A stretch of 64,000 bases of DNA from assembly GCA_036654655.1 (NCBI GenBank), contig JAVVRP010000001.1, positions 6,251-70,250 of the forward strand, given 5' to 3'. The notes beneath the pieces are model-generated. The model was not told the DNA's origin. It searched no databases and saw only the letters and a list, made by a program, of their open reading frames with translations. Origin of the DNA: Clostridia bacterium (GTDB lineage Bacteria > Bacillota > Clostridia > Christensenellales > UBA1242). Shown piece by piece: positions 2,115-63,612 of the stretch; within the stretch, counting starts at the first letter, position 1; each line of letters begins with the position of its first letter. The translations under genes were made by a program, and so were the position numbers.

Positions 2115-4589
<2,475 letters not shown>

Positions 4590-4597
4590 GGGACAAG

Positions 4598-5701
4598 ATG
4601 AAAGATTATTATAAAACACTTGGCGTGGAAAAAAACGCAAGCCAAGACGATATAAAGTCTGCATACAGAAAACTTGCCAAACAGTTGCATCCAGATGTTA
4701 ACAAATCTCCTGATGCGCCTGCTAAATTTAAGGAAATTAATGAGGCGTATCAGTGTTTGGGTGATGAAAGTAAGCGTGCAAACTATGATAATTATGGGTC
4801 CGCAGATGGCCCTCAGGGTTTTAATTTTGGCGGTGCAGAAAGTGGAGGATTTAACTTTGGGGGCGGTGGTTTTACAGACATGTTTTCCGATCTTTTTTCG
4901 GCATTTGGCGGTGGCGGACAGCAAAGACATACAGTGGAAAAAGGTGACGATATAAATGTGGCAATCACAATAACGCTAGAAGAATCAGCATTTGGAGTTA
5001 CAAAAAACTTATTGATAAACAGATATGAATCTTGTGACAAATGCTCAGGTACAGGAGCAAAAAATGGCACAGCATATTCCACATGTCCAGATTGTAATGG
5101 TTTGGGCAGAATTAGAGTGACTCAACAAACAATGTTTGGCACAACAATAAGAGAGGGAGCATGCAAAAATTGTAACGCAACAGGAAAAATAATCCGTGAA
5201 AAATGTGATTTGTGTGGTGGCAAAGGTTCATCAAGAAAAACCTCAACAATAGCCGTTAAAGTTCCGGGAGGAATAGCGGACGGACAAATTCTTAAAATGG
5301 CAGGGCAAGGAAATGCTCCTGTAAGGCAAGGAGTTAATGGAGATTTATTTATAAAAATTAGTGTGGCACCTCATAAAGTTCTTGTAAGGCAGGACAGCGA
5401 TATTCTTTTGGATTTGTTTGTTCCATTTACAACTTCACTTTTGGGAGGGAAAGTAATAATTCCAACTTTGGAAGGTGATTATGAGTTGCAAATAAAAGAA
5501 TTAACTCAAAGCGGAACCGTTATGCGCTTAAAAAACAAAGGTACAAAAGTTTTAAACAGGGAATATAGGGGGGATATGCTTGTAACAATTAAAGCAGAGC
5601 CACCAAGAACTTTGGACAAAAAAACAAAGGACTTACTTAAACAAATAGAAATTCAAAACCCTTTATCATCATATGCAAAATCATGCAAGTTTGAAAAATA
5701 A
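4598..5701 (+). CDS. dnaJ: molecular chaperone DnaJ
   Basis: J-domain with HPD (YRKLAKQLHPDVN), a G/F-rich linker, and four CxxCxGxG zinc-finger repeats (CDKCSGTG, CPDCNGLG, CKNCNATG, CDLCGGKG). Confidence 0.97.
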   Translation: MKDYYKTLGVEKNASQDDIKSAYRKLAKQLHPDVNKSPDAPAKFKEINEAYQCLGDESKRANYDNYGSADGPQGFNFGGAESGGFNFGGGGFTDMFSDLFSAFGGGGQQRHTVEKGDDINVAITITLEESAFGVTKNLLINRYESCDKCSGTGAKNGTAYSTCPDCNGLGRIRVTQQTMFGTTIREGACKNCNATGKIIREKCDLCGGKGSSRKTSTIAVKVPGGIADGQILKMAGQGNAPVRQGVNGDLFIKISVAPHKVLVRQDSDILLDLFVPFTTSLLGGKVIIPTLEGDYELQIKELTQSGTVMRLKNKGTKVLNREYRGDMLVTIKAEPPRTLDKKTKDLLKQIEIQNPLSSYAKSCKFEK

Positions 5702-5710
5702 AATATAAAA

Positions 5711-5741
5711 AAAGCCTTTTAAAATTTTAAAAGGCTTTTTT
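5711..5741 (+). terminator. rho-independent terminator after dnaJ
   Basis: Perfect palindrome aaagccttttaaaa/ttttaaaaggcttt followed by Ts. Confidence 0.8.
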
Positions 5742-5789
5742 ATATCAAAACATTGCAAAATTAACTTAAACTATGATATAATAAAAATT

Positions 5790-6560
5790 ATGTTTATAGA
5801 TACTCATGCACATTTAAATAACGAACAATTGTTCGATATTAGGCAAGCATGCGTTAATAATGCAAAAAATGCAAATGTTAACGCTATTATTTGTGCTTCA
5901 TCCGATTTAATAACCAGCAAAAAGGCATTACAAATTTGCACAGAATTTGACAATATGTTTTGCACAATAGGTTTTCATCCTGATGATATTTCACAAATGG
6001 ATGTGCCTGCGGAAAATTTTTTGTTAGAAAATGCAAAAAATAAAAAAGTGGTTGCCATTGGAGAAATTGGATTAGACTATCACAATAATATAAGCAATCA
6101 CGCAGAACAAAAAGTTGCTTTTAAAAAGCAGATAGAAATTGCAATAAAATCAAAAAAACCAATAGTTGTGCATACAAGGCAATCAATAAATGACACAATA
6201 ACAATTTTAGAGCAATATAAAAATGAAAAAGTCTTTGGAGTTGTTCATTGTTTTGCGGGAGATATATCACATGCAAAAAAAATTATGGAACTTGGTTATG
6301 TTATGAGTTTTGGTGGAACATGTACTTTTAAAAATGCACCAGAAATAAGAGAAGTTTTGGAACAAATTCCGCTTTCTCATATCTTGTTAGAAACTGATTC
6401 GCCATTTTTAACGCCATCACCATTCAGAGGCAAAATTAACGAGCCAAAATATATCCCACTTATTGCACAGCAAATTGCAGATATAAAACGTGTATCACTT
6501 GAACAGGTAGAAAAAACCACCACTCAAAATGCAATACGCGTGTTTGGAATTAACATATAA
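5790..6560 (+). CDS. tatD: TatD-family metal-dependent hydrolase/DNase
   Basis: 256 aa. N-terminal FIDTHAHL motif, with the later GEIGLDYH and HCFAG histidine motifs typical of TatD/YabD. Confidence 0.88.
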   Translation: MFIDTHAHLNNEQLFDIRQACVNNAKNANVNAIICASSDLITSKKALQICTEFDNMFCTIGFHPDDISQMDVPAENFLLENAKNKKVVAIGEIGLDYHNNISNHAEQKVAFKKQIEIAIKSKKPIVVHTRQSINDTITILEQYKNEKVFGVVHCFAGDISHAKKIMELGYVMSFGGTCTFKNAPEIREVLEQIPLSHILLETDSPFLTPSPFRGKINEPKYIPLIAQQIADIKRVSLEQVEKTTTQNAIRVFGINI

Positions 6561-42158: not shown

Positions 42159-42321
42159 AGCATATACTACAAAATAAAACCCAAAAAAAACAATAAATAA
42201 TTAAAATATAAAAAGTTTGTGCGGGTTGTATAAAAGTACATTATTTGGCAAATATTTTAGCCAATTGTTTGACTATTTTAAATTTGGAGTTGTATACTAC
42301 TAACAGTTGAAAGGAGACAAC

Positions 42322-44079
42322 ATGAAAAAAATTTTATCTACATTATTACTCACCTTGCTTTTTATACCTTTTTCGTTTTTATTTTCCGCTTGTGGAGAAA
42401 AGGCGGTTGTAGGCATTGAAATTGCTGGGAATATTATATCAACAGGTATAATTGCCAAAAACACAGAACTTACTGGGCTTCAAGTACGATTTGCATATGA
42501 AGATAGCACAAAAAGCGAATATGTTGAAGTTACTGCTGATATGATAAGCGGTTACACAAAAACATATGCTGGAAAGCAAACTGTAACAGTTACATATCAA
42601 GAAAAAATTAATACATTTGATGTAATTGTTTATGATAAACTTATCACAACAAAGGCAGAACTACAAAGTGCTCAAACACAACAAACAGACAATGAGGTTT
42701 GGGCAATCAATGGAACAATTGGTTCAACCGAAGATTACATTATAACAAAACTAAGCAAAAAAGTTCAAATTTATGGAACAAAAAATGCCACTGTTTATGG
42801 AACTTTTTTTGTTGGTTCCGACAATGTAATAATTGATGGAATTAACTTATTTGTACGTGGTGGTGGTGGAGATTTTCTTAAAAATGGAATGAATTTGGTT
42901 TGCAAAATTGTAACAATTAAAAATTGCAAATTCACATTGCCAAATCCAACCGCACTTGCATTAACAGGCGGTGTTGGAAATGGAATTGTTATTTGGCCAT
43001 ATGGAACAGCAAATGCAAACATTCAAATTGTTAAAAACACTTTTATTGGTTTTAATGCAGTGGTGGCTGAATGGTGTTCATCAGCAATTGTTACAGCCGA
43101 AAATCTTGCAATGGATCGCTTTGGCAAAACAGGTGAAAGTTCAGTTACACTTGGGCTTACACAACAGCAAGAAGTTGCTTTTGGCTCAGAAAACACATTT
43201 AATGGTTGCACAATTAATTATGGAAGACAAAATTGGGCGGTAGGCAGTGATTCAATTATAACAATTTTAGGTGAAGAAACAGTTGAAGTATCAGGCACTG
43301 TTTTTGACAAAAATTGCAAATTTGTTTCACAAAATGTAATGGCTGGTTTAAAAGAAAAAAGTGAAGCACTTTTCACAAATTATTATAATAAGGAAAATAC
43401 ATCATCAGATAAAAAATCAAGACAAACAGTTGAAGTAACAGATCAAGAATTTTATATTGAAGTAACAAAAAATTTGATAATGAACCAAAATTCGTCAGTT
43501 TTAAAAATTAATAATATTATTGTAAATAACAATATTACAGGTTTCAGTACTGGAAATAACCGTTTCTTTGACAAAAAACCATATTTTATTAAAGACCAAA
43601 AACTTTATATTGCAGTTCCTGTGTTATCTGTTGAAGCAATAAATGGAAAAGTTATATGCAATTTAGATAATCAAGATTTTACAGTGTATGCATTTCCAGC
43701 AGGTGATAATCAATTGCAACTTAGCAACGTTTCAGCCGTAGCACCAGGAGATCATACAGGCACAGCAGGAAAAACATTTGCAAATAATGTTTACACAATT
43801 AATCATACAAAATCTCACGGAGATGTTTATATTCTATTTACATACAAAGTTGGAGAAAACACTTCTGTTGCAAGTGGAACACACGTGTTTACAAAAAAAG
43901 TTAAACAAAGTGGAACATCTTACGGGATGGATGTAACCGGAACAAATGGAACAACATTTTACTATCCAACTGCTTATAACACCGAGATTTACACAGGTAT
44001 CACTGAAATAAATTACACAGTAAACATTGTTGGATTGGGCACTGTTCATATGTTGGTTAAAGTTTCACCAGTTGCGTAA
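42322..44079 (+). CDS. surface lipoprotein with a Big_3-like Ig domain and probable right-handed beta-helix region (585 aa)
   Basis: AAGGAGA RBS, then ATG 42322. Lipobox LFSAC. Ig-like module ending GKQTVTVTYQEKINTFDVIVYD. G/N/T-rich repeats (VIIDGINLFVRGGGG..., IVKNTFIGFN) suggest a pectate-lyase-like fold. Confidence 0.6.
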   Translation: MKKILSTLLLTLLFIPFSFLFSACGEKAVVGIEIAGNIISTGIIAKNTELTGLQVRFAYEDSTKSEYVEVTADMISGYTKTYAGKQTVTVTYQEKINTFDVIVYDKLITTKAELQSAQTQQTDNEVWAINGTIGSTEDYIITKLSKKVQIYGTKNATVYGTFFVGSDNVIIDGINLFVRGGGGDFLKNGMNLVCKIVTIKNCKFTLPNPTALALTGGVGNGIVIWPYGTANANIQIVKNTFIGFNAVVAEWCSSAIVTAENLAMDRFGKTGESSVTLGLTQQQEVAFGSENTFNGCTINYGRQNWAVGSDSIITILGEETVEVSGTVFDKNCKFVSQNVMAGLKEKSEALFTNYYNKENTSSDKKSRQTVEVTDQEFYIEVTKNLIMNQNSSVLKINNIIVNNNITGFSTGNNRFFDKKPYFIKDQKLYIAVPVLSVEAINGKVICNLDNQDFTVYAFPAGDNQLQLSNVSAVAPGDHTGTAGKTFANNVYTINHTKSHGDVYILFTYKVGENTSVASGTHVFTKKVKQSGTSYGMDVTGTNGTTFYYPTAYNTEIYTGITEINYTVNIVGLGTVHMLVKVSPVA

Positions 44080-44094
44080 AAATATTAGCAAAAA

Positions 44095-44128
44095 CAAAAA
44101 ATGGTTGCTGTTACAACCATTTTTTTTA
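44095..44128 (+). terminator. rho-independent terminator
   Basis: aaaaaatggttg / caaccatttttt stem-loop with a T8 tail. Confidence 0.8.
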
Positions 44129-44235
44129 ATCTAAAACATATTAGTTCATTGACAAAAAACATGCTTAGTGGTATTTTAATTAAAATATTTTGTATTTAAA
44201 AATAAAATATTAAAGAAACAAAAGGTAAAAAAAAT

Positions 44236-46161
44236 ATGTTAAAAAACATTGAAAGCAAATTTAACAAATATTTAAATTTGGTGTGCAAAGACAAAGATTT
44301 AATTTTATATTCGCAGTGTTTTTTTAATGATTTATGTAAAGAATTTAATGGAAAAGTTTTTACAAAAAGTGATTTTGAAACACAAGTTTATAAAGGGAAA
44401 ACATATATACAGGACAGTGTAAAGTCACTGTTTAAGTTTAAAAGAGAAAGAAAAATTGACGAAATTTTTTATTATCTTTTTAAAAATAATGTTAACGTCA
44501 TTGAATATTTTTTACCCGAGCCATATGAAAACACATCTGCAGATTATGCTTATTACCGCAAAACAATAAGAATTGCAAAAATTAACATGGAAGAATTAAT
44601 TCAAAGTATTTTGGCAGAAAAAGATTTTAAAACAGAAACATTAACAGAGGAGCAAATATATCAAAAAGCATTGGGAGTTGCAAACGAAGTTGCAAGTTTT
44701 GAAAATAAAGAAAATTTGTATCATGAATTAGGGCATGTTTTGGACTTTAAAAGATTTAAGCATAAAAGCATAATTAAACATAGTTTTCAAACTCATTTTG
44801 TTTTAAGAAATATATTCGAAGATTATAAAACTTGTGAAACTGAAAGTTTAAATAAAAATGCTGATAAAACAATAATGTCAAATAAAAAAGTACTTAATTT
44901 GGCAAAGATGCAGGTTAAAAGAATTCAATTAGAAGGTGAAAGTGCATTAGATGAAATTTCAAATGAAGTATTTGTAAACAAACTTAATAATTGTTTTATA
45001 ATTAATCATTTTCAAAATATATCTTTAAATCGTGAAAGTTTGTTTCAAGGTGTGATGGAAGGTAATTGTTCATATAATGAAGACATTGATATTTTAACTT
45101 TTTTAGAAATGGCGTCAAAAAAAACAAGAGTGAAAGACACGTTGTTTAATTCTCATTTAATTATTAATGAACTAAATGGCAAAAATTTTGTTTCAAAATT
45201 GCCAATGTATAAAAAAAAGATAATAGAAGAAATTTCAAAAGATGTAATTATCAAAAAAAATGATTTTGAATTTTTTGAATGTGAAAAACTTATTAAAAAC
45301 TTTTCTATTTTTGACACAATAACTTTTGCAATGGGAGTGGTTAAGTTATTTAGACAAAGTTGCAAAAATAGTTGTGATAAAATAAAAATTAATGAAATAC
45401 AGTTAAAAGAGGAAATAAAAACTAAAACGAATAAAAATTTATATTTAACTACTTTATTAAAAGATGGCAATGGAAAAATTAAGGAATTAAAATTTAAAAA
45501 TAAAAAATTGGCAGAAGAAGTTGAATTGAGCAAAAAAATCCAGTTAAATTTTAAAAAAATTTTAAAAGAAATGTTTTTAGAAATTATTAAAGAAAATATG
45601 CTTAAAGAAATTAATGATTCAAAAACAATTAAGGATGAAAAATATTTTGTAGAGTTAAATAATAAACTTGAAAACATTAATACTTTTATTGGGTATGATT
45701 TTGAAATTGAATACAAAAATTATTATAATTTTGATACCAAAGAGGGCAATTTAAATTTAGTTTTGTTAAATGATAAAACTGTTGAAAATTATGCAACAGA
45801 AAAACCAAACGAAAATTTATATCAGTTATTTAATGAAATTGTAAAACTTGCTGAAAACGAAGTGATAACCCATTCGTCAAATGCAAAAGATTTTATTCCA
45901 ACAATGACATTTTTGTTAAAACAAATTAAATTAAAACAAAAATTAAAAACAAGAGAAACTTTAACAAAAATGGAATTAAATTATTTGGATAGTCAAAGCA
46001 AGTTAAACAATAATTACAACAATTTAAATAACCAACAAGAACTGGAAATGCAAGAGGAAATTAACAGGCGAAAAAAAATTTATCAACAATATTTGCAAGT
46101 GCATAACATAAAAGTTCACAACAAAAATGTTAATCAAAAATCGCAAGAAATTAATTTATAA
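44236..46161 (+). CDS. large K/N/E-rich hypothetical protein (641 aa) with a single HExxH motif
   Basis: Long uninterrupted ORF with a LYHELGHVLDF zincin-like motif around residue 163. The remainder is low-complexity helical. It appears to be the most AT-rich coding region of the window by eye. Confidence 0.55.
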   Translation: MLKNIESKFNKYLNLVCKDKDLILYSQCFFNDLCKEFNGKVFTKSDFETQVYKGKTYIQDSVKSLFKFKRERKIDEIFYYLFKNNVNVIEYFLPEPYENTSADYAYYRKTIRIAKINMEELIQSILAEKDFKTETLTEEQIYQKALGVANEVASFENKENLYHELGHVLDFKRFKHKSIIKHSFQTHFVLRNIFEDYKTCETESLNKNADKTIMSNKKVLNLAKMQVKRIQLEGESALDEISNEVFVNKLNNCFIINHFQNISLNRESLFQGVMEGNCSYNEDIDILTFLEMASKKTRVKDTLFNSHLIINELNGKNFVSKLPMYKKKIIEEISKDVIIKKNDFEFFECEKLIKNFSIFDTITFAMGVVKLFRQSCKNSCDKIKINEIQLKEEIKTKTNKNLYLTTLLKDGNGKIKELKFKNKKLAEEVELSKKIQLNFKKILKEMFLEIIKENMLKEINDSKTIKDEKYFVELNNKLENINTFIGYDFEIEYKNYYNFDTKEGNLNLVLLNDKTVENYATEKPNENLYQLFNEIVKLAENEVITHSSNAKDFIPTMTFLLKQIKLKQKLKTRETLTKMELNYLDSQSKLNNNYNNLNNQQELEMQEEINRRKKIYQQYLQVHNIKVHNKNVNQKSQEINL

Positions 46162-46166
46162 AACTG

Positions 46167-47864
46167 TTATTTTTCAACTGAATTTTTTTTTGGAGAATAT
46201 GTCGGTTTTATTTTACTGTGGAAAAACTTTTTATTGCCAGTCGTGCTTTTTGTCCCAATTGTTTTTTTCTTTTCAAAAGAAAAATTTTTATCGGCAAATT
46301 TTTGTTTGCCGTTAAATCTGGAAGTTTCTTTAAATTCACTTTTTGGTGCATAACTTCTTTTTTCTCCAAATTTTGAACGAGATAAGTTTTGGTCTTGAAA
46401 AGAATCTTTTGTTTTATCATAAGACGATTTAGAATATGTTGTTTTTTTGTCCGTATAACTTTTATTTAATTTTTCGTTTATTTTTAAGGCATATCTTGGT
46501 GAAGAATGTGCTTTACTTGCATAATGAACTTCTGCACTTTTTGTTGCCAATTCATTATTAAAAGATTTTCCAAGTGGTTTGCTATTTGTTCTTTTTGATA
46601 TATTAAAATTTTGTGATTTGCCTTGGTGCGACCCAGTAAAGTTATTTTTAAAAGATGGTGCAGAAAAATTTTTTTTTCTTTCACCAGAAAAACTTACACC
46701 CCTAGAACTTTTCTCATTCAAAAAATTTGTTTCTTGCAAATATTTATCTTGCGCTGTGTCCCCATTAAGCAATATTTGATTAATTGTTGCTTTTGTTTCT
46801 TTTTCAATTAAAGCAAGTTGTTTAATTTGCATTCTTGTTGTAACAAAAGAAATTGCCACTCCTGTTAACCCCGCACGCCCAGTTCTGCCAATGCGGTGAA
46901 TGTAATATTCAACATCTTTTGGAATGTCATAATTAAAAATTATATCAACATTTTTAACATCAATTCCACGTGCAGCAACGTCAGTTGCCACCAAGTAATT
47001 AACTTTTCCAGATTTAAGTTCTTGCATTGCTTTTTGTCTGGCACTTTGCCTCATATCTCCATGAAGAGAAACAGCCTTTAACCCGTTTAAAACAAGCATA
47101 TCTGTAACATCGTCAACCATTTTCTTTGTGTTGCAAAAAATAATTGAAGTTGTTGGTTTCATATCTAAACATAATTGAATAAGAGCGTCTTTCTTTTCAT
47201 GAAAAACAAACGACTGTTTAATTAATTTTGTTGTTTCATTTTTATTTCCAACTTCAATAAGAATTGGATTTTTCATAAATTCGTTTGTTATTTTTAAAAT
47301 TGGAGCGGGTAGTGTTGCAGAAAACATAACAGTTTGTCGTTCTGGATTAACTTTTGCTAAAATTGTTTCAATGTCTTCTTTAAAACCCATGTTTAACATT
47401 TCATCTGCTTCATCAAGAACAGCCATTTTTAAAAAGTCCATTTTAAGGGTGCGTCTTCGCAAGTGATCCATAATCCTTCCCGGTGTGCCAACAACAATTT
47501 TTGCACCATTTTTAAGCGCCATTTTTTGCCTGTCCATGCTGTTGCCACCAAAAATAGGAACAACCTTGCAAGATTCTTTAAAAGCAGTTATTTTTTTAAA
47601 TTCTTCACATACTTGAATTGCAAGTTCGCGTGTTGGGCAAACCACAAGTACCTGAACGCAACTTCGTGTGGTGTCAACTTTTTCTATTGCTGGAATTGCA
47701 TATGCAATGGTTTTTCCACTTCCAGTTTGTGATTTTCCAATAACGTCTTTGCCTTCCATTATAAGAGGTAAACATTTTGATTGAATTTCAGTGGCTTCTT
47801 CAAACCCCTGCTTTGCAACTGCGTCTATTATGTATTGTGGTAAATTAAGTTCGGTAAATTTCAT
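46167..47864 (-). CDS. DEAD-box ATP-dependent RNA helicase (CshA-like) with a long basic S/K-rich C-terminal tail
   Basis: Q-motif (GFEEATEIQ), Walker A SQTGSGKT, DEAD (VLDEADEM), SAT, HRIGRTGRAG, followed by about 190 aa of K/S/N-rich tail. Confidence 0.93.
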   Translation of the reverse strand: MKFTELNLPQYIIDAVAKQGFEEATEIQSKCLPLIMEGKDVIGKSQTGSGKTIAYAIPAIEKVDTTRSCVQVLVVCPTRELAIQVCEEFKKITAFKESCKVVPIFGGNSMDRQKMALKNGAKIVVGTPGRIMDHLRRRTLKMDFLKMAVLDEADEMLNMGFKEDIETILAKVNPERQTVMFSATLPAPILKITNEFMKNPILIEVGNKNETTKLIKQSFVFHEKKDALIQLCLDMKPTTSIIFCNTKKMVDDVTDMLVLNGLKAVSLHGDMRQSARQKAMQELKSGKVNYLVATDVAARGIDVKNVDIIFNYDIPKDVEYYIHRIGRTGRAGLTGVAISFVTTRMQIKQLALIEKETKATINQILLNGDTAQDKYLQETNFLNEKSSRGVSFSGERKKNFSAPSFKNNFTGSHQGKSQNFNISKRTNSKPLGKSFNNELATKSAEVHYASKAHSSPRYALKINEKLNKSYTDKKTTYSKSSYDKTKDSFQDQNLSRSKFGEKRSYAPKSEFKETSRFNGKQKFADKNFSFEKKKTIGTKSTTGNKKFFHSKIKPTYSPKKNSVEK

Positions 47865-52863: not shown

Positions 52864-53206
52864 GTAATTATTTTTTAAAGTCAATATCAAATATTTAAAA
52901 AATGTATAAAATATAAATTAAGGATTTAAGCAAAATAACTTTAAAACGTTACTAGCAAAAATTCTTTTTTTATTTTAAAATTTAAGCGAAATTTATTTTA
53001 AAAGTTTGATAAGGGTTAAATATTAATCAGAATAATAAAATTTTCATAAAAATTAAGTAACAATTAATTTATATTTATTAAAAATTGGCAAAAAAATAAA
53101 CTAAAAACTTAAATTTGCAAACCAATAATTGTAAAAAATAATTAAAAAAATCTAGTAAAAAAATAAATTGTAATTAATTTGTTAATAATTTTAGTTGCAA
53201 AAATGA

Positions 53207-53235
53207 TTGACAACATTTATAATTTTTGATATTAT
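53207..53235 (+). promoter_or_regulatory. strong sigma-A-type promoter with no obvious cognate gene
   Basis: TTGACA (53207-53212), 17 nt, extended -10 TGaTATTAT (53227-53235), preceded by phased A-tracts. The nearest downstream feature is tRNA-Thr, about 290 nt away. Confidence 0.5.
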
Positions 53236-53527
53236 AATAATGCATTTAAGTTAGTTGTAAAACTGGTTTAAAAAATGATAAACGTGGGGAGGCGTAGTTT
53301 GCAAATTATATTTTTATAAACTTAAATAAGTATGCTGGCATTATAAAATAAAAAAGCAAAAACTTGCTTAAAAAAATATAATTAAACGAAGTTAACTTTA
53401 AAAATCAGAATTGCAACTATAATATTTTGTTTGTATGTTGAACCCGTTGTTATTAATTGTTTTTATTAATTCTAAAAATGCAAAAAAGTATTACAATTCA
53501 AAAAATAGTACAAAACATCTAATTTAT

Positions 53528-53602
53528 GCTGGTGTGGCTTAGCGGTATAGCACCGCCTTGGTAAGGCGGAGATCGCGGTTTCAACTACCGCCACCAGCTC
53601 CA
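53528..53602 (+). tRNA. tRNA-Thr (anticodon GGT)
   Basis: Acceptor gctggtg/caccagc, anticodon stem cgcc/ggcg with loop tTGGTAa, T-arm gcggtTTCAACTaccgc, encoded CCA. Confidence 0.85.
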
Positions 53603-53625: not shown

Positions 53626-53650
53626 AAAAAGTGCCTAAAAGCACTTTTTT
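53626..53650 (+). terminator. rho-independent terminator after tRNA-Thr
   Basis: aaaagtgc / gcactttt stem with a 6-nt loop, followed by a T-run. Confidence 0.75.
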
Positions 53651-53670: not shown

Positions 53671-53794
53671 TTTAGTACTTTTTACTAAAACTGCGACTAA
53701 TTTTATGGCACAAAAAAGACAGAAAGTTCATTTTTAGTACTTTTTACTAAAACTGCGACCAATTTTATGGTACAAAAAAGACCGAAAGTTCATT
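53671..53794 (+). repeat. 62-bp direct tandem repeat, two copies (59/62 identical), each containing a TTAGTA-N5-TACTAA palindrome
   Basis: Copy 1 is 53671-53732 and copy 2 is 53733-53794. They differ at 3 positions (T/C, C/T, A/C). Palindromes lie at 53672-53688 and 53734-53750. Confidence 0.9.
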
Positions 53795-53945
53795 ACAAAC
53801 CTTTGATCTTTTTCAATAATTTATTTGAAATTATGTTGTATTATAAAATTAATTGTGCTATACTTTTAAAAAAATAGAGAGCATGAAATTGCGGATATTT
53901 TGGCAAAAAATTGGAAATAAAAAACAAAGTAGGAAAAATAACAAA

Positions 53946-55679
53946 ATGACATTAGCACAGTTTTTTAACAATCTGGGTTTATCAAAACAGCAAGTGGAAT
54001 ATGTTTTGCAATCACACTATAACTCATTTAATGCTAATGTTGAAACATTGCAAAAAAAGGTTGAATTTTATAAAAAAACATTTAATCTTACAAATGAAGA
54101 ATTTAACAAAATTTTTGTAAGTTTGCCTGCTTTGCTTAATCGTGCGGAGTCCACAGTTTTATTAATTATAAAATTTTATAAAGAAAAACTAAAAATAACT
54201 GATGCAGAATTTAACAAGATGTTTATTTTGTATCCATCTTTGTTAACACATTCAAAAGAAGGGCTAGAAAATAAACTTATTTTTTATAAAAATCAGTTTG
54301 AATTAAACGAAGCCCAACTCCAAAAATTAATAGTTGGTTTTCCAAACTTATTAAATTATGCTATAAATGGAGTTGTTGAAAAAATCTTATTTTATAAAAA
54401 TCTTTTAAATTTATCTATAAAAGAAGTTAATAATTTACTTGTTTTAAACACAAGGCTAATTGGATTTTCGCAAGAAAGTGTATTAAATAAAATAGATTTT
54501 TATAAAAAAACATTTAATTTAAATAATGACCAATTTAAAAAAATATTAACAGTCCAACCAGCCCTTCTTAATTATGCAGAAGAAAGCATACAAGGAAAAG
54601 TTAATTTTTATAAATCAACATACAAAATAAATGATGAGGAATTTAAAAAAGTTTTTTTAGCCCAACCAGCCATACTTGGGTACGCAGAATGTTCGGTTTT
54701 AGAAAAAAATGCCACATACAAAAAACTTTTTTGCTTGAATGATAAGGATTTAAAAAAAATATTTTTAATTTTGCCATCAATTTTATGTTTTTCTAATGAG
54801 GGACTTAATGAAAAATACAAACTTATTGCAAATTTAATAAATTTGAGCGAGCAAGAACTAGCAAAAATTTTTACAAACCAGCCAACAATAATTTGCCACT
54901 CAAATCAAAGTATTGTTAACAAAATTAAATTTTATAAAAGCACATTTAAAATGAGTGACCAGCAATTTAAACATGCATTTGTTTCTCAGCCATCAATTAT
55001 TAGTTTTGCAGAAAAAAGCGTATTGCAAAAAGCGGACTTTTACACAAAAATTTTTATGCTAAGCGAAAATGAATTAATAAATGCCATTGTAACTCAACCA
55101 GGACTTTTATGTTTTGCTGAGGAAAGCGTAAAAGCAAAAATCAAACTTTATGCGGAAACATTTGGGCTAAGCGAAAAGGAAATAAAAAAAGTTTTTTTAC
55201 AAATGCCAACCATGTTATGTTTGGCAGAAAAAAGCGTGATTGCAAAAAAGAAAGCATTAGACGAAGTTGGAATTACAAAAAAAGAAATTGTTGATAATTT
55301 TGTTATGATTGTAACGCCATCAAATAAATTGAAAATAAGGTTTATGTTATTAGCAAGTAATTTTGGGCGAGAGCAGGTTATTGATTCGAAAAGATGGTTT
55401 ATGACAGGCGAGCAAAAGGTTTACGCAAGGTTGTTTTTTTTAAAAGAAAACAACAAAAAATTTACCTTGACGCAGTTGTTGTATGATGAAAAACGCTTTA
55501 TCTCAAAGTACAAAATTTCAAATGACGAACTTGTTAAAAAATATCCAATAACCAATTGTTCATTAAAGGAAATAGAGCAAGGCTACAAACAAAAATTTGC
55601 AGGTTCTGCAATAAGTTTAAATGATTATGTTTTAGAAGACAAAATGGAGAATGAAAAATGTCAAGCGTTGAATTTATAA
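53946..55679 (+). CDS. mTERF-like repeat protein (11 tandem 36-aa helical repeats)
   Basis: The ORF is open from 53853. ATG 53946 (MTLAQFF...) is favoured because a TTGTAT-17-TGcTATACT promoter ends near 53872; ATG 53883 is the alternative. Repeat consensus: (V/I)xFYKxxFxLxxxEFxKxFxxxPxLLxYAExSVxxK. Confidence 0.7.
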   Translation: MTLAQFFNNLGLSKQQVEYVLQSHYNSFNANVETLQKKVEFYKKTFNLTNEEFNKIFVSLPALLNRAESTVLLIIKFYKEKLKITDAEFNKMFILYPSLLTHSKEGLENKLIFYKNQFELNEAQLQKLIVGFPNLLNYAINGVVEKILFYKNLLNLSIKEVNNLLVLNTRLIGFSQESVLNKIDFYKKTFNLNNDQFKKILTVQPALLNYAEESIQGKVNFYKSTYKINDEEFKKVFLAQPAILGYAECSVLEKNATYKKLFCLNDKDLKKIFLILPSILCFSNEGLNEKYKLIANLINLSEQELAKIFTNQPTIICHSNQSIVNKIKFYKSTFKMSDQQFKHAFVSQPSIISFAEKSVLQKADFYTKIFMLSENELINAIVTQPGLLCFAEESVKAKIKLYAETFGLSEKEIKKVFLQMPTMLCLAEKSVIAKKKALDEVGITKKEIVDNFVMIVTPSNKLKIRFMLLASNFGREQVIDSKRWFMTGEQKVYARLFFLKENNKKFTLTQLLYDEKRFISKYKISNDELVKKYPITNCSLKEIEQGYKQKFAGSAISLNDYVLEDKMENEKCQALNL

Positions 55680-55948
55680 AAAACACTTTTGGAATTGATA
55701 ACGAAACCATAATGAATATGATTAATATTTGTGAAGGGATTTTAATTATCGATAAAGATAGAATTTTGCAAAATGCTAAAACATTAATTGAATTTGGCTA
55801 TCCCAAAAATGAACTTGGCATGCTTTTTTCAGTTAATCCTGCTGTTTTGTGCTATGATTACAAAGAATTAACTGCAAAACTTAAACAAGTGATAAAAAAT
55901 AATAATAATTTAGAAGAATTGTTAAAAAATAATCCTTTTTTAATATAA
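55658..55948 (+). CDS. small mTERF-like protein (96 aa, about two repeat units)
   Basis: GGAGAA RBS. The start overlaps the upstream stop by 22 nt. It contains VEFIKNTFGIDNETIMNMINICEGILIIDKDRILQNAKTLIEFGYPKNELGMLFSVNPAVLCYDYKELTAKLK. Confidence 0.6.
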   Translation: MSSVEFIKNTFGIDNETIMNMINICEGILIIDKDRILQNAKTLIEFGYPKNELGMLFSVNPAVLCYDYKELTAKLKQVIKNNNNLEELLKNNPFLI

Positions 55949-56167
55949 TTATTGTTCTTTTTTTAATTTTTTTAACCGATTATTTATTTCAGTTATTTGG
56001 ACATTATTATTTTTAAATTCATCATAAAGTTTAACAAGATTTTCATTATTTTCGTTAATAGTTTTAGGTTCAATTTTGCAAAGTTTTTCACACAAAATTT
56101 TATATTCAGATGATTTAGTTTCAAGTTCATTTACAAGTTTTTCAAGTTCATTTTGTTTAACTTTCAT
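55949..56167 (-). CDS. small coiled-coil protein (72 aa), function unknown
   Basis: Heptad-like K/E/N/L-rich sequence with an AGGAG-containing leader (aaggagtaaataataaaATG). Its stop codon directly abuts the stop of the convergent 96-aa gene. Confidence 0.5.
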   Translation of the reverse strand: MKVKQNELEKLVNELETKSSEYKILCEKLCKIEPKTINENNENLVKLYDEFKNNNVQITEINNRLKKLKKEQ

Positions 56168-59097: not shown

Positions 59098-59676
59098 TTA
59101 ACATATATTAAAAATTTTTAATTCAAAACAATAATGCGAAAGCAGTGCTTTGTTTATTGTTATAACAACACTTCTTTGTCCATTGCATTCAGCATATATG
59201 CTTAATTTATCACAAACTTCAAAACAAGGGATGCAAAAATATCCACAATTATTTGTATGAGTTGTTGTGATATTTTTTCCGCAGGCAAAAACTTCTGCGT
59301 TAATTAATCGTTTCCCGCATTGATTATAAACAATTCCTTCAACACTAACCAAGTGTGGAATGCATGGAGGAGGTGGGCAAGGTGGTGTTGGTGGGCAAGG
59401 TGGAATTGGTGGACATGGTGGACAAGGGCAACAATCACAACAACAAGCAGTTTTTAATTTATTGTAAAGCATGATTTCAAGGCTGGTTACATCCATTATT
59501 GTACTTTGAACAGAACAGTTGATTTTTAAAAGATCATCAACACAAGTTGCAAGTTCAAGTGCTTTTTGTAACTTTTCTCCTTCTGCGTTAAGTATGTGCG
59601 CAAGTCCGGTTTCTTCCAAAGCAATAGATTCAATCACGTTGTTTTTTTGACAATATTTTTCATTTTTTTCAATCAT
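59098..59676 (-). CDS. Cys-rich protein (192 aa): [16 protein letters not shown] domain, CPPCPP-type Cys/Pro hinge, C-terminal Cys-rich beta-sandwich-like domain
   Basis: AAGGGGAAAAAA RBS. Residues 78-105 read [29 protein letters not shown]. The C-terminus [38 protein letters not shown] resembles carboxypeptidase-regulatory-like folds. Confidence 0.65.
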   Translation of the reverse strand: [192 protein letters not shown]

Positions 59677-60650: not shown

Positions 60651-62777
60651 ATGGGGCTTCAAGAGGCAATATTAGAGTATATAAACAAAAACGCGGGAGT
60701 AAAAGTTTTGTTCAAGGACATTGTAAATGAGTTCGGCAGTCAGCATGATGTTGCCAAAGCAATAGCAAGATTAAAATCAAAAGGAGATATTCTTATTACT
60801 AAATCAAAAGACTTTGTGGTCAACCCCAAAAAACTTAAATTATCAAAAGCAAAAGTTGTTGTGCTGTCTAATAATGTTAGAATTTGCAACAGTTTAGACG
60901 ACGGCAAAGATTATTTTATTAAAAACAACAAATCTTTAGACGCCTTTGTTGGTGATTTGGTTTATATAAAAACTTTTGGAGATAACAACGGTGCGGAAAT
61001 AGTTTCAATAATAAAAAAAGCAACAAACAGTGAAATTTTGGGTTTTGTAAAAGAAACCACTAACAAGGAAAAATATATTGTTCCTAAAAACAGGAATTAT
61101 AAAATAAAAATTAGAGTGCCTGATAATCAACTTGGTGGGGCAAATGTTGAAGATGCCGTTATGGTTACAGTGCATAAAGTTGATCAAGGAGATGTTTACG
61201 AAGGAAGGGTTCAAAGTGTTTTAGGAGAAATTAACACAAAAGAGCAACTTGAAAATGCTGTATTTCACGAATTTAATGTTAAAAGGGTTTTTCCAAAAGA
61301 AGTTTTGGAAGAATGTGAAAAAATTCCAACAGAAGTAACTTCCCAAGATATAATTGGAAGGCGAGATTTAAGAAATTTAAACGTTTTTACAATTGATCCT
61401 GCAACCGCATTAGATTTTGATGATGCAATATCTGTTGAAAAAATTGGTGAAAATTGGAGATTGGGTGTTCATATTGCCGATGTTTCACACTATGTAAAAG
61501 AAGGATCAAGGATTTATTCGGAAGCAATGTTAAGGGGCACAAGTGTGTATTTTCCAAATGGCGTGATTCCAATGTTGCCATCAAAACTTTCAAATGGAGT
61601 TTGTTCACTCTTGCCAAATTTAGATCGTTTAACTCTTTCTGTTTTTATGGATATAAATCAACAAGGCGATGTTATAAAAAATGATATTTGTGAGTCGGTT
61701 ATAAACAGCAAGTCCCGAATGAATTATGAAGAAGTTATGGCAATTTTTAATGGTGATAAAATTATTGCAGAAAAATATAATAATGTTTTGCCAGATCTTT
61801 TGGAATCGCGAAATCTTGCAAAAGCATTAAAAGGGCAAGCAGAAAGGCGTGGCGAACTTCGTTTAGATATATCGGACATAGAAGTTCATGCCGACCTTGG
61901 CAAATTTACAAACATAACAATTTCAAAAGATGTACAAGATGAAAGCCATGAATTAATAGAGCGTTTTATGGTTATTTGTAATAGTGTTGTTGCAGGTTTT
62001 ATGGATTCAAAGGGGCTCCCATGTGTTTATCGTGTTCACCCAGAGCCAGATGGAATACGAGAGTTTGCAAAATTTATGAAATTAAATTTTGGTATAATTT
62101 GTCCAAAAGAGCCGTCTAGTTTTGATTTGCAAAACTTAATTGATAAAGTGCCAGAAAAGGTAAGAGATATTGTATGCTCTAAAATGCTATGTGCACTTGC
62201 AAAGGCAATTTATTTAAATCATCAGTTAAATGGGCATTATGCTCTTGCTTTAAAACATTACTGCCATTTTACCGCGCCAATTAGAAGAACTCCGGACCTT
62301 GTTGTTCACGCAACACTTAAAAAATTTATACGCAATACATTAGACATGGTTCATTGTGGCGCAAAAGAAGAGAGCAAGGTTTTTGAATGTGCAGTTGAAA
62401 GTAGCGAAAAAGAAAGAAATGCCGATAGCGTTGAGAGAGCACTAGCAAAGTTGTTTTGTTGTTTTGATCTTGAAAGTAGCATAGGGAAAAAATTTAAGGG
62501 AACTGTGTATAACATTAATGAAGATGAAATACAAATAAAACTTGAAAATGGAATTTTTGGTGCAATACCGATAGCAGAACTTAGTGGTGATTATAAATTA
62601 GATTTAGATAGGGTGGCTTTAATAGGAAATAAAAATTCATATAAATTTGGGCAAACTGTTGATGTTACGCTTATAGATGTTCAGCCAAGTACAAGACAAA
62701 TATTTTTTAAACCCACATTGCAACTAAAAAATAGCCCTAAATTTGAAGACGATAAAAAATTTGAAATAACATCTTGA
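60651..62777 (+). CDS. rnr: ribonuclease R
   Basis: 708 aa with an RNB domain (FTIDPATALDFDDAISVE, HYALALKHYCHFTAPIRRTPDLVVH) and a C-terminal S1 domain (KFKGTVYNINEDEIQIKL). Confidence 0.93.
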   Translation: MGLQEAILEYINKNAGVKVLFKDIVNEFGSQHDVAKAIARLKSKGDILITKSKDFVVNPKKLKLSKAKVVVLSNNVRICNSLDDGKDYFIKNNKSLDAFVGDLVYIKTFGDNNGAEIVSIIKKATNSEILGFVKETTNKEKYIVPKNRNYKIKIRVPDNQLGGANVEDAVMVTVHKVDQGDVYEGRVQSVLGEINTKEQLENAVFHEFNVKRVFPKEVLEECEKIPTEVTSQDIIGRRDLRNLNVFTIDPATALDFDDAISVEKIGENWRLGVHIADVSHYVKEGSRIYSEAMLRGTSVYFPNGVIPMLPSKLSNGVCSLLPNLDRLTLSVFMDINQQGDVIKNDICESVINSKSRMNYEEVMAIFNGDKIIAEKYNNVLPDLLESRNLAKALKGQAERRGELRLDISDIEVHADLGKFTNITISKDVQDESHELIERFMVICNSVVAGFMDSKGLPCVYRVHPEPDGIREFAKFMKLNFGIICPKEPSSFDLQNLIDKVPEKVRDIVCSKMLCALAKAIYLNHQLNGHYALALKHYCHFTAPIRRTPDLVVHATLKKFIRNTLDMVHCGAKEESKVFECAVESSEKERNADSVERALAKLFCCFDLESSIGKKFKGTVYNINEDEIQIKLENGIFGAIPIAELSGDYKLDLDRVALIGNKNSYKFGQTVDVTLIDVQPSTRQIFFKPTLQLKNSPKFEDDKKFEITS

Positions 62778-62802
62778 AAAAGGTTTAGAAAGGTGGTATA
62801 AT

Positions 62803-63261
62803 ATGGATGGAAATAAAATTATTGCAAACAATAAAGTTGCTTATCATAACTATTTTATTTCTGATATCCATGAGGCAGGCATTTCATTACAAGGAAGTGA
62901 GGTTAAGTCCATAAGAGATGGTGGCATAAGCATTTTGGGTAGTTATATCATTATTGAAAATAATGAATTATATCTTAAAAATGCGTTTATAAAACCATTT
63001 GAAAAGGCTTCCAATTATATCCCAGATTCCAGACGAAACCGAAAACTTTTACTTAATAAAGACGAAATTTTAAAATACGAAAAAAAAGTAAAAGAAAAAG
63101 GATTCACACTTGTCCCGTTAAAAGTATATTTAAAAAGGGGGCTTGTAAAAGTTGAAATTGGGCTAGGAGAGGGAAAACAACTTCATAACAAAAAGCAAGA
63201 TATGATAGAAAAAACTGCCAAACGAGAAATTGACAGAGCAATGAAAGTCAATTTTAAGTAA
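62803..63261 (+). CDS. smpB: SsrA-binding protein SmpB
   Basis: 152 aa with IANNKVAYHNYFI, GSEVKSIR and a basic C-terminal tail. It lies immediately upstream of the tmRNA. Confidence 0.95.
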   Translation: MDGNKIIANNKVAYHNYFISDIHEAGISLQGSEVKSIRDGGISILGSYIIIENNELYLKNAFIKPFEKASNYIPDSRRNRKLLLNKDEILKYEKKVKEKGFTLVPLKVYLKRGLVKVEIGLGEGKQLHNKKQDMIEKTAKREIDRAMKVNFK

Positions 63262-63265
63262 ATGT

Positions 63266-63612
63266 GGGGGCGACATGGCTTCGACGTGCTTGGGTTCAAA
63301 AGTGTAAAGCGTGTGGCAGAACTTGAACTGCCTAAAAAATCAGGAAAAAATTTAAACGCAAATAATTATCAAAGCCCAGTTGCAGCGTAATGCAACTTGC
63401 TTGTTTCAGTTGGCTCATTTGCTGATTTCAAGCACGAGAAAATGAGATGCTGTTGTCACACTTCTCCGATGACAACCTAAGATAAGGGGGAATAGCAAAC
63501 AAAAAGAGTGTTTATGTTCGTTTTATTTGCAAATTTAAATCATAAACTGCACACGGAGAAAGGCTTATTGCATCAAGTTCGGACGCGGGTTCAATTCCCG
63601 CCGTCTCCACCA
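63266..63612 (+). ncRNA. ssrA: tmRNA (SsrA); predicted tag (A)GKNLNANNYQSPVAA
   Basis: 5' GGGGGCG pairs with 3' CGTCTCC (G3-U wobble), then ACCA. T-arm GGGTTCAATTCCC. The internal ORF gga aaa aat tta aac gca aat aat tat caa agc cca gtt gca gcg taa ends in the canonical ...VAA. Confidence 0.92.

Follow-up and report, generated by a model that had tools for sequence, protein, structure and literature searches.

A bacterial mTERF-type repeat protein and its conserved mini-mTERF partner gene in a Clostridia genome

A pair of overlapping genes on a bacterial chromosome

We report here on two overlapping genes in a stretch of 64,000 nucleotides from a Clostridia bacterium (lineage Christensenellales, UBA1242; GenBank assembly GCA_036654655.1, contig JAVVRP010000001.1, positions 6,251 to 70,250 of the forward strand), which is referred to below as the window. 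The long gene (53946..55679, +) encodes a protein of 577 amino acids resembling the mitochondrial transcription termination factors (mTERFs), as judged from Pfam, an AlphaFold2 model and Foldseek, and probably of the prokaryotic type recently named pTERF. The small gene (55658..55948, +) encodes 96 amino acids, which the same three methods identify as a free-standing mini-mTERF of about 2.5 motifs. Its reading frame overlaps the end of the long one by 22 nt (55658-55679). The mTERF family is overwhelmingly eukaryotic. An earlier note, made from the DNA letters and a list of open reading frames (ORFs), had drawn attention to both ORFs as a bacterial mTERF-like solenoid and a co-transcribed paralogue, and placed them and their overlap correctly.

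The ORF considered in that note is the mechanical one, which opens at TTG 53853 and runs to 55679 (+; 608 codons). This open frame exists, but TTG 53853 is probably not its start. Translation most likely begins at ATG 53946 (MTLAQFF..., M32 of the 608-codon ORF), because the N termini of homologues align with M32 and because gene calling done independently on identical contigs likewise yields a product of 577 amino acids. Sequence inspection places an AGGA at 53931-53934, 11 nt 5' of this ATG, and the protein so predicted opens straight into its first motif, as its homologues do. A possible extended -10 element, TGcTATACT (53856..53864, +), was noticed by eye and is held with low confidence, promoter-like hexamers being abundant in the AT-rich DNA around it; if used, it would leave TTG 53853 upstream of the transcript start.

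Eleven repeats in exact register

The long protein contains eleven 36-residue mTERF motifs (54060..55247, +; residues 70-465 of the 608-codon ORF) that begin at residues 70, 106 and so on to 430, in exact register and with zero insertions or deletions. All six units quoted in the earlier note are present verbatim. The unit consensus is xxFYKxxFxLxxxExxKxFxxxPxLLxxAExSVxxK, with a mean pairwise identity of 29%, and a BLOSUM62 autocorrelation of the protein has its sole peak at lag 36 (1.67, compared with -0.77 +/- 0.12 in 500 shuffles; z = 20.8). The regular array accounts for 396 of the 577 residues (69%) and has one degenerate motif on either side, and the last ~108 residues are non-repeat; the regular units are thus real, but the description of the protein as built almost entirely of repeats went too far. 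At the DNA level, Tandem Repeats Finder detected no 108-nt period in the gene, which indicates that the repeats are old and individually diverged and not the product of a recent expansion.

The positions at which the repeats vary coincide between members of the family (Spearman 0.35-0.66), and the variation is greatest near the invariant proline. In the window protein, position 21 varies most. The related protein P0054 has five repeats that are otherwise nearly identical, and position 24 is different in each of them. Judging by these alignments, positions 21 and 24, and also 27/28, which flank the invariant proline, are candidate specificity positions.

A side observation concerns residues 311-361 of the 577-residue form (window positions 54876-55028), which weakly match phrog_3915, a phage family of unknown function (E 5.5e-5, 24 bits). 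This family may contain an mTERF-like motif.

The long protein has the mTERF fold

Against the Pfam mTERF model PF02536 (gathering cut-off 23.1), the long protein scored 135.5 bits (E 2.5e-39) over four stretches in the repeat region, and the small protein scored 33.3 bits (E 3.1e-8). The mTERF identity proposed in the earlier note is thereby borne out for both proteins. NCBIfam gave no match to either, and no Pfam family of the TPR, PPR, HEAT, ARM or TALE type was matched at E <= 1. A sequence search of the PDB with the long protein returned mTERF proteins only, namely Tetrahymena mitoribosomal mS93 and human MTERF1 and MTERF3, the best match being mS93 (6Z1P chain BY, E 8.4e-7).

The canonical mTERF motif has a proline at position 8 and hydrophobic residues at positions 11, 18 and 25 (Roberti et al. 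2009, quoted in PMC11417379). The same spacing is found in the long protein with the register rotated by 15: proline at unit position 23 in 10 of the 11 units, L/I at 26 and V/I/L at 33 in all 11, and, as the equivalent of canonical position 25, Y at position 4 of the following unit in 10 of 11.

An AlphaFold2 model of the 577-residue protein, built from an alignment of eight sequences, has a mean pLDDT of 72, with values mostly of ~75-90 across roughly the first 280 residues, and shows three helices of ~14, 10 and 5 residues per 36-residue unit. When this model was compared with the PDB by Foldseek, the top 17 matches were all chains of the mTERF family (MTERF3, MTERF1, MTERF4 and mS93), with a TM-score of 0.74 for MTERF3 and of 0.57-0.65 for DNA-bound MTERF1 (E about 1e-5) at structural-alignment identities of 12-17%. 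There was no Foldseek match to a TPR, PPR or HEAT fold, the other solenoid classes named in the earlier note. A TALE fold was also considered and rejected (4hpz, E 0.16, TM-score 0.26-0.32). The handedness of the superhelix is only implied, by a weak match to the designed left-handed alpha/alpha toroid 4yxx (E 0.08) and by superposition on MTERF structures.

The long protein therefore represents the mTERF fold in a bacterium, with ~13 three-helix motifs, 11 of them perfectly regular, arrayed in a superhelix. Eukaryotic mTERF proteins are nuclear-encoded and targeted to mitochondria or plastids, whereas the long protein is encoded on a segment of bacterial chromosome; this is a trait of distribution, not of fold.

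The small gene encodes a separate, acidic mini-mTERF

The AlphaFold2 model of the small protein is of high confidence (pLDDT 94, pTM 0.83). Foldseek aligned it with MTERF3 at a query-normalised TM-score of 0.80 and an rmsd of 2.1 A, and MTERF1 and MTERF4 were matched as well. A profile built from the window protein and four neighbours of long-gene homologues retrieved 44 protein clusters, all of 93-97 amino acids, with G47, P49, N60, P61 and P93 invariant and a fixed C terminus (...LK.[ND]P..I). The family is uniformly acidic, with a median pI of 4.1 and a net charge of -10 (window protein, pI 5.0). By contrast, the long protein has a pI of 9.2 and a net charge of +20, and the median pI of the long family is 8.9.

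In a profile-profile comparison the small family aligned with the last repeat of the long family and the motif that follows it (E 7.4e-5), and by tblastn the small ORF is 24% identical to the long gene (E 0.001). To go by these comparisons, the small gene, called a "mini-paralog" in the earlier note, did not arise from the long one by recent duplication but represents a separate conserved family. Such a partner gene of bacterial mTERF-type proteins has apparently not been described before.

Pairing of the two genes is conserved

Within the last part of the long gene, 8 nt 5' of ATG 55658, is a GGAG (55646..55649, +) that reads as a Shine-Dalgarno sequence for the small gene. Together with the conservation of the pair, this supports the co-expression of the two genes suggested in the earlier note. 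We surveyed 12 distinct loci, the window included, which were obtained by exact-protein look-ups seeded with long proteins P0002, P0003, P0004, P0005, P0006 and P0007 and small proteins P0175, P0197, P0205 and P0207. In 11 of the 12, a long gene is followed on the same strand by an immediately adjoining small gene; the locus of P0001 is the sole one without the pair. Spacing ranges from an overlap of 22 nt to a gap of 11 nt. Every small gene is preceded by its own Shine-Dalgarno sequence (GGAG or AGGAG), and nine other loci have the same arrangement as the window. Contigs of matching length suggest that further pairs exist beyond these 12 loci.

Across pairs, small-protein identity co-varies with that of the C-terminal tails of the long proteins (Pearson 0.84, Spearman 0.41), which is expected from joint inheritance and compatible with co-evolution.

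In three related loci (L091, L093 and L096, at about 4500-6300 in each), the pair lies on the opposite strand between aspS-ygjV-rimM-trmD and khpA-rpsP-ffh-ylxM-ftsY-smc. The ribosome-biogenesis cluster rpsP...rimM-trmD is usually contiguous, so that the pair splits it at these loci. In two others the pair converges on ileS, and one locus of the family contains SpoIIE. A further variation was observed at L089 (3-2243) and at L090, where the C-terminal part of a long gene, a gene for a 97-residue partner and a second long paralogue (P0005, 475 amino acids) follow one another; here two solenoid genes have one partner gene between them.

A bacterial family with its own C-terminal extension

Because the low-complexity repeats saturate word-index searches of proteins, these yielded only 5-7 relatives, and HMMER was needed to reveal the family. 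When 1.84 billion representative proteins were searched exhaustively by HMMER, with a profile made from the homologues obtained first, 1,504 proteins matched at E <= 1e-3 and 127 at E <= 1e-30. The C-terminal region of the window protein is common to 112 of the 153 family matches listed. These 112 representatives are bacterial-type proteins of 170-713 amino acids and fall into two subgroups with repeats of 36 and 41 residues. Members of the 36-residue subgroup such as P0054, P0039 and P0032 look just like the window protein. The remaining relatives listed are long, tail-less, eukaryote-looking mTERFs. Among the matches listed, no family representative is more than about 34% identical to the window protein. 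One member is MCQ2382455.1, from a Clostridia bacterium metagenome-assembled genome (MAG).

The tail itself (55353..55676, +; the last ~108 amino acids) is helical and has the signature K..YAR...EK.F.....S..LM..YPL. In the tail alignment A25 and F49 are invariant and K22, R26, L60 and Y64 nearly so, and pLDDT is about 76-91 over model residues ~491-550. It has no significant relative in Pfam or the PDB and is thus a family-specific extension beyond the canonical mTERF region. A known domain was looked for and rejected, Pfam being empty and the only match a marginal one to RpoD (E 0.02).

Other searches returned nothing. A peptide-pattern scan of species-representative genomes with the long protein found zero relatives. 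Phage and plasmid collections held no homologues, a tblastn search of phage genomes included. The 80 loci obtained through the neighbouring gene ppdK (pyruvate phosphate dikinase) contained no mTERF-like gene and had no gene order in common with the window.

Relation to known mTERF systems

Recent plant literature still describes mTERFs as absent from prokaryotes (PMC12977773), and the earlier note knew of no characterised bacterial member. That statement is out of date, since a 2024 screen of DNA-binding tandem-repeat proteins named a "pTERF" family and described its DNA binding (Nucleic Acids Res 2024;52:10464, PMC11417379). For pTERF1 (MBQ3414883.1), the founder of the family, which stems from a Clostridia MAG of ruminant gut, the motif is ACTNNNAGTC and the Kd 1.87 nM, and pTERF2 binds a distinct motif with a nanomolar Kd; EMSA, BLI and SELEX were used for both, and a GFP reporter for pTERF1 (PMC11417379). 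The family has about 47 known members, mostly from Bacillota MAGs, with 3-11 units and a repeat period that the cluster name TR_35_C32 suggests to be about 35 (PMC11417379). That paper makes no mention of operons, genomic context, a C-terminal extension or a partner gene, and none of the other papers searched dealt with these bacterial proteins.

The window protein shares with pTERF proteins its source among uncultured Bacillota and Clostridia gut MAGs, its contiguous three-helix repeats of ~35-36 residues, its unit number (11 here, 3-11 in pTERF), the Pfam mTERF motifs in its repeats and its low identity to eukaryotic mTERFs (12-17%, compared with 9-18% for pTERF; PMC11417379). It is thus likely that it belongs to the pTERF family.

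Human MTERF1 (PDB 3MVA/3MVB) is similar to the long protein in its fold, motif hallmarks and basic solenoid. However, MTERF1 has about eight irregularly spaced motifs and a mitochondrial presequence, is nuclear-encoded and has no known small partner, whereas the window protein has 11 regular 36-residue units with degenerate flanks, a 108-residue tail and a coupled partner gene, and is encoded on a bacterial chromosome. Human MTERF3 (PDB 3M66) is the best structural match of both proteins. The MTERF4-NSUN4 complex (4FP9) shows that an mTERF is able to act as an obligate heterodimer, but there the partner is an RsmB/F-type methyltransferase and not a mini-mTERF, and no such enzyme is consistently linked to the genes described here. 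MTERF3, MTERF4-NSUN4 and Tetrahymena mS93 also differ in that they act on ribosomes or rRNA in organelles. TALE and PPR proteins likewise consist of tandem helical repeats of ~34-36 residues with a few hypervariable positions per repeat, which may encode specificity here too, but they are of another fold and family: the TALE match is at E 0.16 and a TM-score of about 0.3, and no PPR or TALE family of Pfam was matched. We know of no one-repeat-one-base code for mTERF proteins.

Proposed function and alternatives

The explanation that we favor, and to which we give a slightly better than even chance, is that the long protein is a pTERF-type regulator or roadblock that binds double-stranded DNA (dsDNA) at a specific site and forms a complex with the acidic mini-mTERF encoded by the translationally coupled small gene. 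A role as a DNA regulator is proposed because of the fold homology, the charge and the published binding data for pTERF. The basic inner face of the solenoid would wrap a specific dsDNA site, with repeat positions 21, 24 and 27/28 possibly setting the specificity, and once bound the protein would serve as a transcription factor or roadblock specific to that site, like mitochondrial MTERF1. Translational coupling would cause the small protein to be made in step with the long one. It most likely binds the long protein, at the C-terminal extension or by stacking on an end of the solenoid, and may complete, target, modulate or antagonise it.

Several observations weigh against this explanation. 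The AlphaFold2 model is only moderately confident in the C-terminal half of the long protein (pLDDT 50-70). Some members of the long family are acidic (pI 5.3-6.0, for example at L091 and L093). In eukaryotes, many mTERFs have RNA or ribosomes, not DNA, as their binding partners. There is no supported candidate target site; the earlier note had suggested testing the 62-bp repeats upstream of the pair for binding, and seven homologous loci have no counterpart of them upstream, which leaves that link without comparative support. The window has 0 occurrences of the pTERF1 motif ACTNNNAGTC compared with 2.2 expected, which is uninformative because specificity differs between members. Assignment to the pTERF family was made by shared description, not by alignment to pTERF1. 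Finally, the P8/L11/L18/L25 pattern that is clear in the window protein was reported as unseen in pTERF1 (PMC11417379), and the two could therefore be of different subfamilies.

As a more far-reaching and decidedly tentative extension, bacterial mTERF-type proteins may constitute an obligate two-subunit system, in which a basic specificity solenoid with a docking tail is joined by an acidic mini-mTERF of ~95 residues as its cap, completer or switch. To our knowledge, a heteromeric architecture of a long solenoid and a mini-mTERF has no precedent in any mTERF.

The strongest alternative, which we consider rather unlikely, is that the pair is an RNA-binding or ribosome-biogenesis factor, with the solenoid on rRNA or tRNA precursors and the small protein as an adaptor, comparable to MTERF3, MTERF4-NSUN4, plant mTERF9 and mS93. 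This would agree with mS93 and MTERF3 as the best matches by sequence and by structure, respectively, with the structural match to MTERF4 in mitoribosome assembly intermediates, and with the MTERF4 heterodimer as a precedent for a two-subunit mTERF. The pair also lies amid translation genes at L091, L093 and L096 and converges on ileS at two other loci. In the window it is preceded by tRNA-Thr; the genes for RNase R, SmpB and tmRNA are found ~5-8 kb further downstream, and that for a DEAD-box helicase lies ~6 kb upstream. Such adjacency carries little weight, because translation genes are frequent in these small, dense genomes. Against this alternative, where prokaryotic mTERF-like proteins have been studied by experiment, in a single paper, they bound dsDNA tightly and sequence-specifically (PMC11417379), and neither an rRNA methyltransferase nor another enzyme partner is a consistent neighbour of the pair. 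Adjacency to a tRNA gene, reminiscent of the MTERF1 site inside a tRNA gene, was considered as a conserved feature and rejected, as it occurs at 2 of 10 loci counting the window.

It is also conceivable, but improbable, that the basic solenoid on DNA is opposed by the acidic small protein as an antagonist, decoy for the DNA-binding face or anti-factor, which would release the solenoid under some condition in the manner of an anti-sigma factor or antitoxin. The charge asymmetry (small-family median pI 4.1 and net charge -10, compared with 9.2 and +20 for the long protein) and the tight translational coupling fit this possibility, as does the alignment of the small protein with the last motifs of the long family, by which it could compete for the motif-stacking surface. 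However, PADLOC gave no toxin-antitoxin or defence model match (0 matches for all three proteins), there are no phage or plasmid copies, the pair has a stable housekeeping context within one lineage, and some of the long partners are themselves acidic. Such an inhibitor module is a variant of the DNA-binding regulator with its coupled partner and has no distinct identity. An origin of the locus in defence, toxin-antitoxin, phage or plasmid elements was likewise examined and discarded, phrog_3915 being the only, weak, match.

The proposal that the ORFs are eukaryote-derived, by contamination or by a recent non-functional transfer, could draw on the overwhelmingly eukaryotic distribution of mTERFs, their stated absence from bacteria (PMC12977773) and the local GC content of 24%, below the window average, but it is already refuted by the contiguous 64-kb bacterial window with tmRNA, SmpB and tRNAs, the presence of the genes on several independent assemblies of the same strain, the bacterial Shine-Dalgarno sequences, overlapping genes and intact reading frames, and more than 100 divergent relatives in bacterial contexts with the family-specific tail and partner.

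Returning to the DNA-binding regulator with its coupled partner, the window protein is probably a new, divergent member of a recently described, obscure bacterial family and not the first of its kind. The conserved, coupled, acidic mini-mTERF partner, the family-specific tail of ~108 residues and the candidate specificity positions are apparently new. mTERFs are textbook organelle-specific regulators, and papers up to 2026 still call them absent from prokaryotes; a single screen in 2024 established that prokaryotic versions exist and bind DNA tightly, and it offered nothing on their biology. The Pfam score of 135 bits, the canonical spacing and the 11 regular units now tie the bacterial proteins firmly to the canonical mTERF family, and the partner gene and the tail provide first handles on how bacterial mTERFs work in cells. 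A recognition code may lie in the variable repeat positions, a point of importance if such proteins are to become reprogrammable DNA-targeting tools. Should the two-subunit proposal hold, the published pTERF binding data would describe half of a native complex. The bacterial lineage could also bear on the origin of organellar mTERFs, either as an ancestral bacterial fold or through transfer from a eukaryote to a gut bacterium.

Surroundings of the locus

The window is a piece of bacterial chromosome with dense coding, seven tRNAs and genes for tmRNA, SmpB and RNase R. The closest relatives of its ppdK are from MAGs of uncultured gut Clostridia, at 72-74% identity. Identical DNA (100%) is present in further assemblies of this strain, among them GCA_036653055.1. 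There, contig JAVVUR010000003.1 matches the window only from 54280, within the repeats of the long gene, its first 128 nt being unrelated, and the long gene is called as a truncated product of 473 amino acids. The full-length long protein is missing from protein databases, probably because of this assembly break inside the repeats.

Upstream of the pair, the gene-less AT-rich tract, the tRNA and the tandem repeat mentioned in the earlier note were all found. The tract comprises 664 bp without an ORF of at least 50 amino acids (52864-53527, ~24% GC). Inside it, at 53207-53235, lies a near-consensus promoter of the sigma-70 type (TTGACA, 17 nt, TATTAT, with a TG; 11/12), about 290 nt upstream of tRNA-Thr, which may drive either a tRNA transcript with a long leader or a small RNA that has escaped annotation. 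The tRNA-Thr(GGT) gene (53528-53602, +) was called by ARAGORN and Rfam and is followed by a terminator-like hairpin (53626-53649, +; terminator scan), the upstream boundary of the transcription unit.

Between this hairpin and the long gene, Tandem Repeats Finder identified 2.0 copies of a 62-bp direct repeat (53671..53794, 95% match). Each unit opens with the palindrome TTAGTA-N5-TACTAA, and neither unit nor palindrome occurs elsewhere in the 64-kb window. The repeat gave no RNA-fold signal (z = -0.03) and no Rfam match. As an operator or binding site of the long protein, or as a structured RNA, it has only proximity in its favor and is not supported, being unique in the window, not conserved and without a fold signal.

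Downstream, the pair converges on a minus-strand unit of epimerase and glycosyltransferase genes whose last gene is a Lys/Glu-rich ORF of 72 amino acids (55949..56167, -), which has an AAGGAG upstream of its ATG and is called as a gene on identical contigs. The stop codons of the small gene and of this ORF abut at 55946-55951, with 0 nt between them, and the terminator scan found no terminator-like site between the converging units at 55949.

Further away, a 192-residue ORF (59098-59676, -) and its 88-residue neighbour carry PF26595 (A_ENA) in the precomputed annotation of an identical contig; our own Pfam scan of the 192-residue ORF at E <= 1e-5 gave no match. RNase R (RNB, CSD2 and S1 domains), SmpB and tmRNA (tag ANNYQSPVAA) follow in a row at 60651-63612 as the usual trans-translation cluster. 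On the other side, the DEAD-box helicase gene (46167-47864, -) lies about 6 kb upstream of the pair. Next to it, at 42307-46161, are two large ORFs with no Pfam match at E <= 1e-5. One encodes 590 amino acids with a lipoprotein-like signal peptide (...LFSAC), and the other encodes 641 amino acids, is rich in Lys, Asn and Glu, and lies where the GC content of the window is lowest (21-24%, 44-46 kb).

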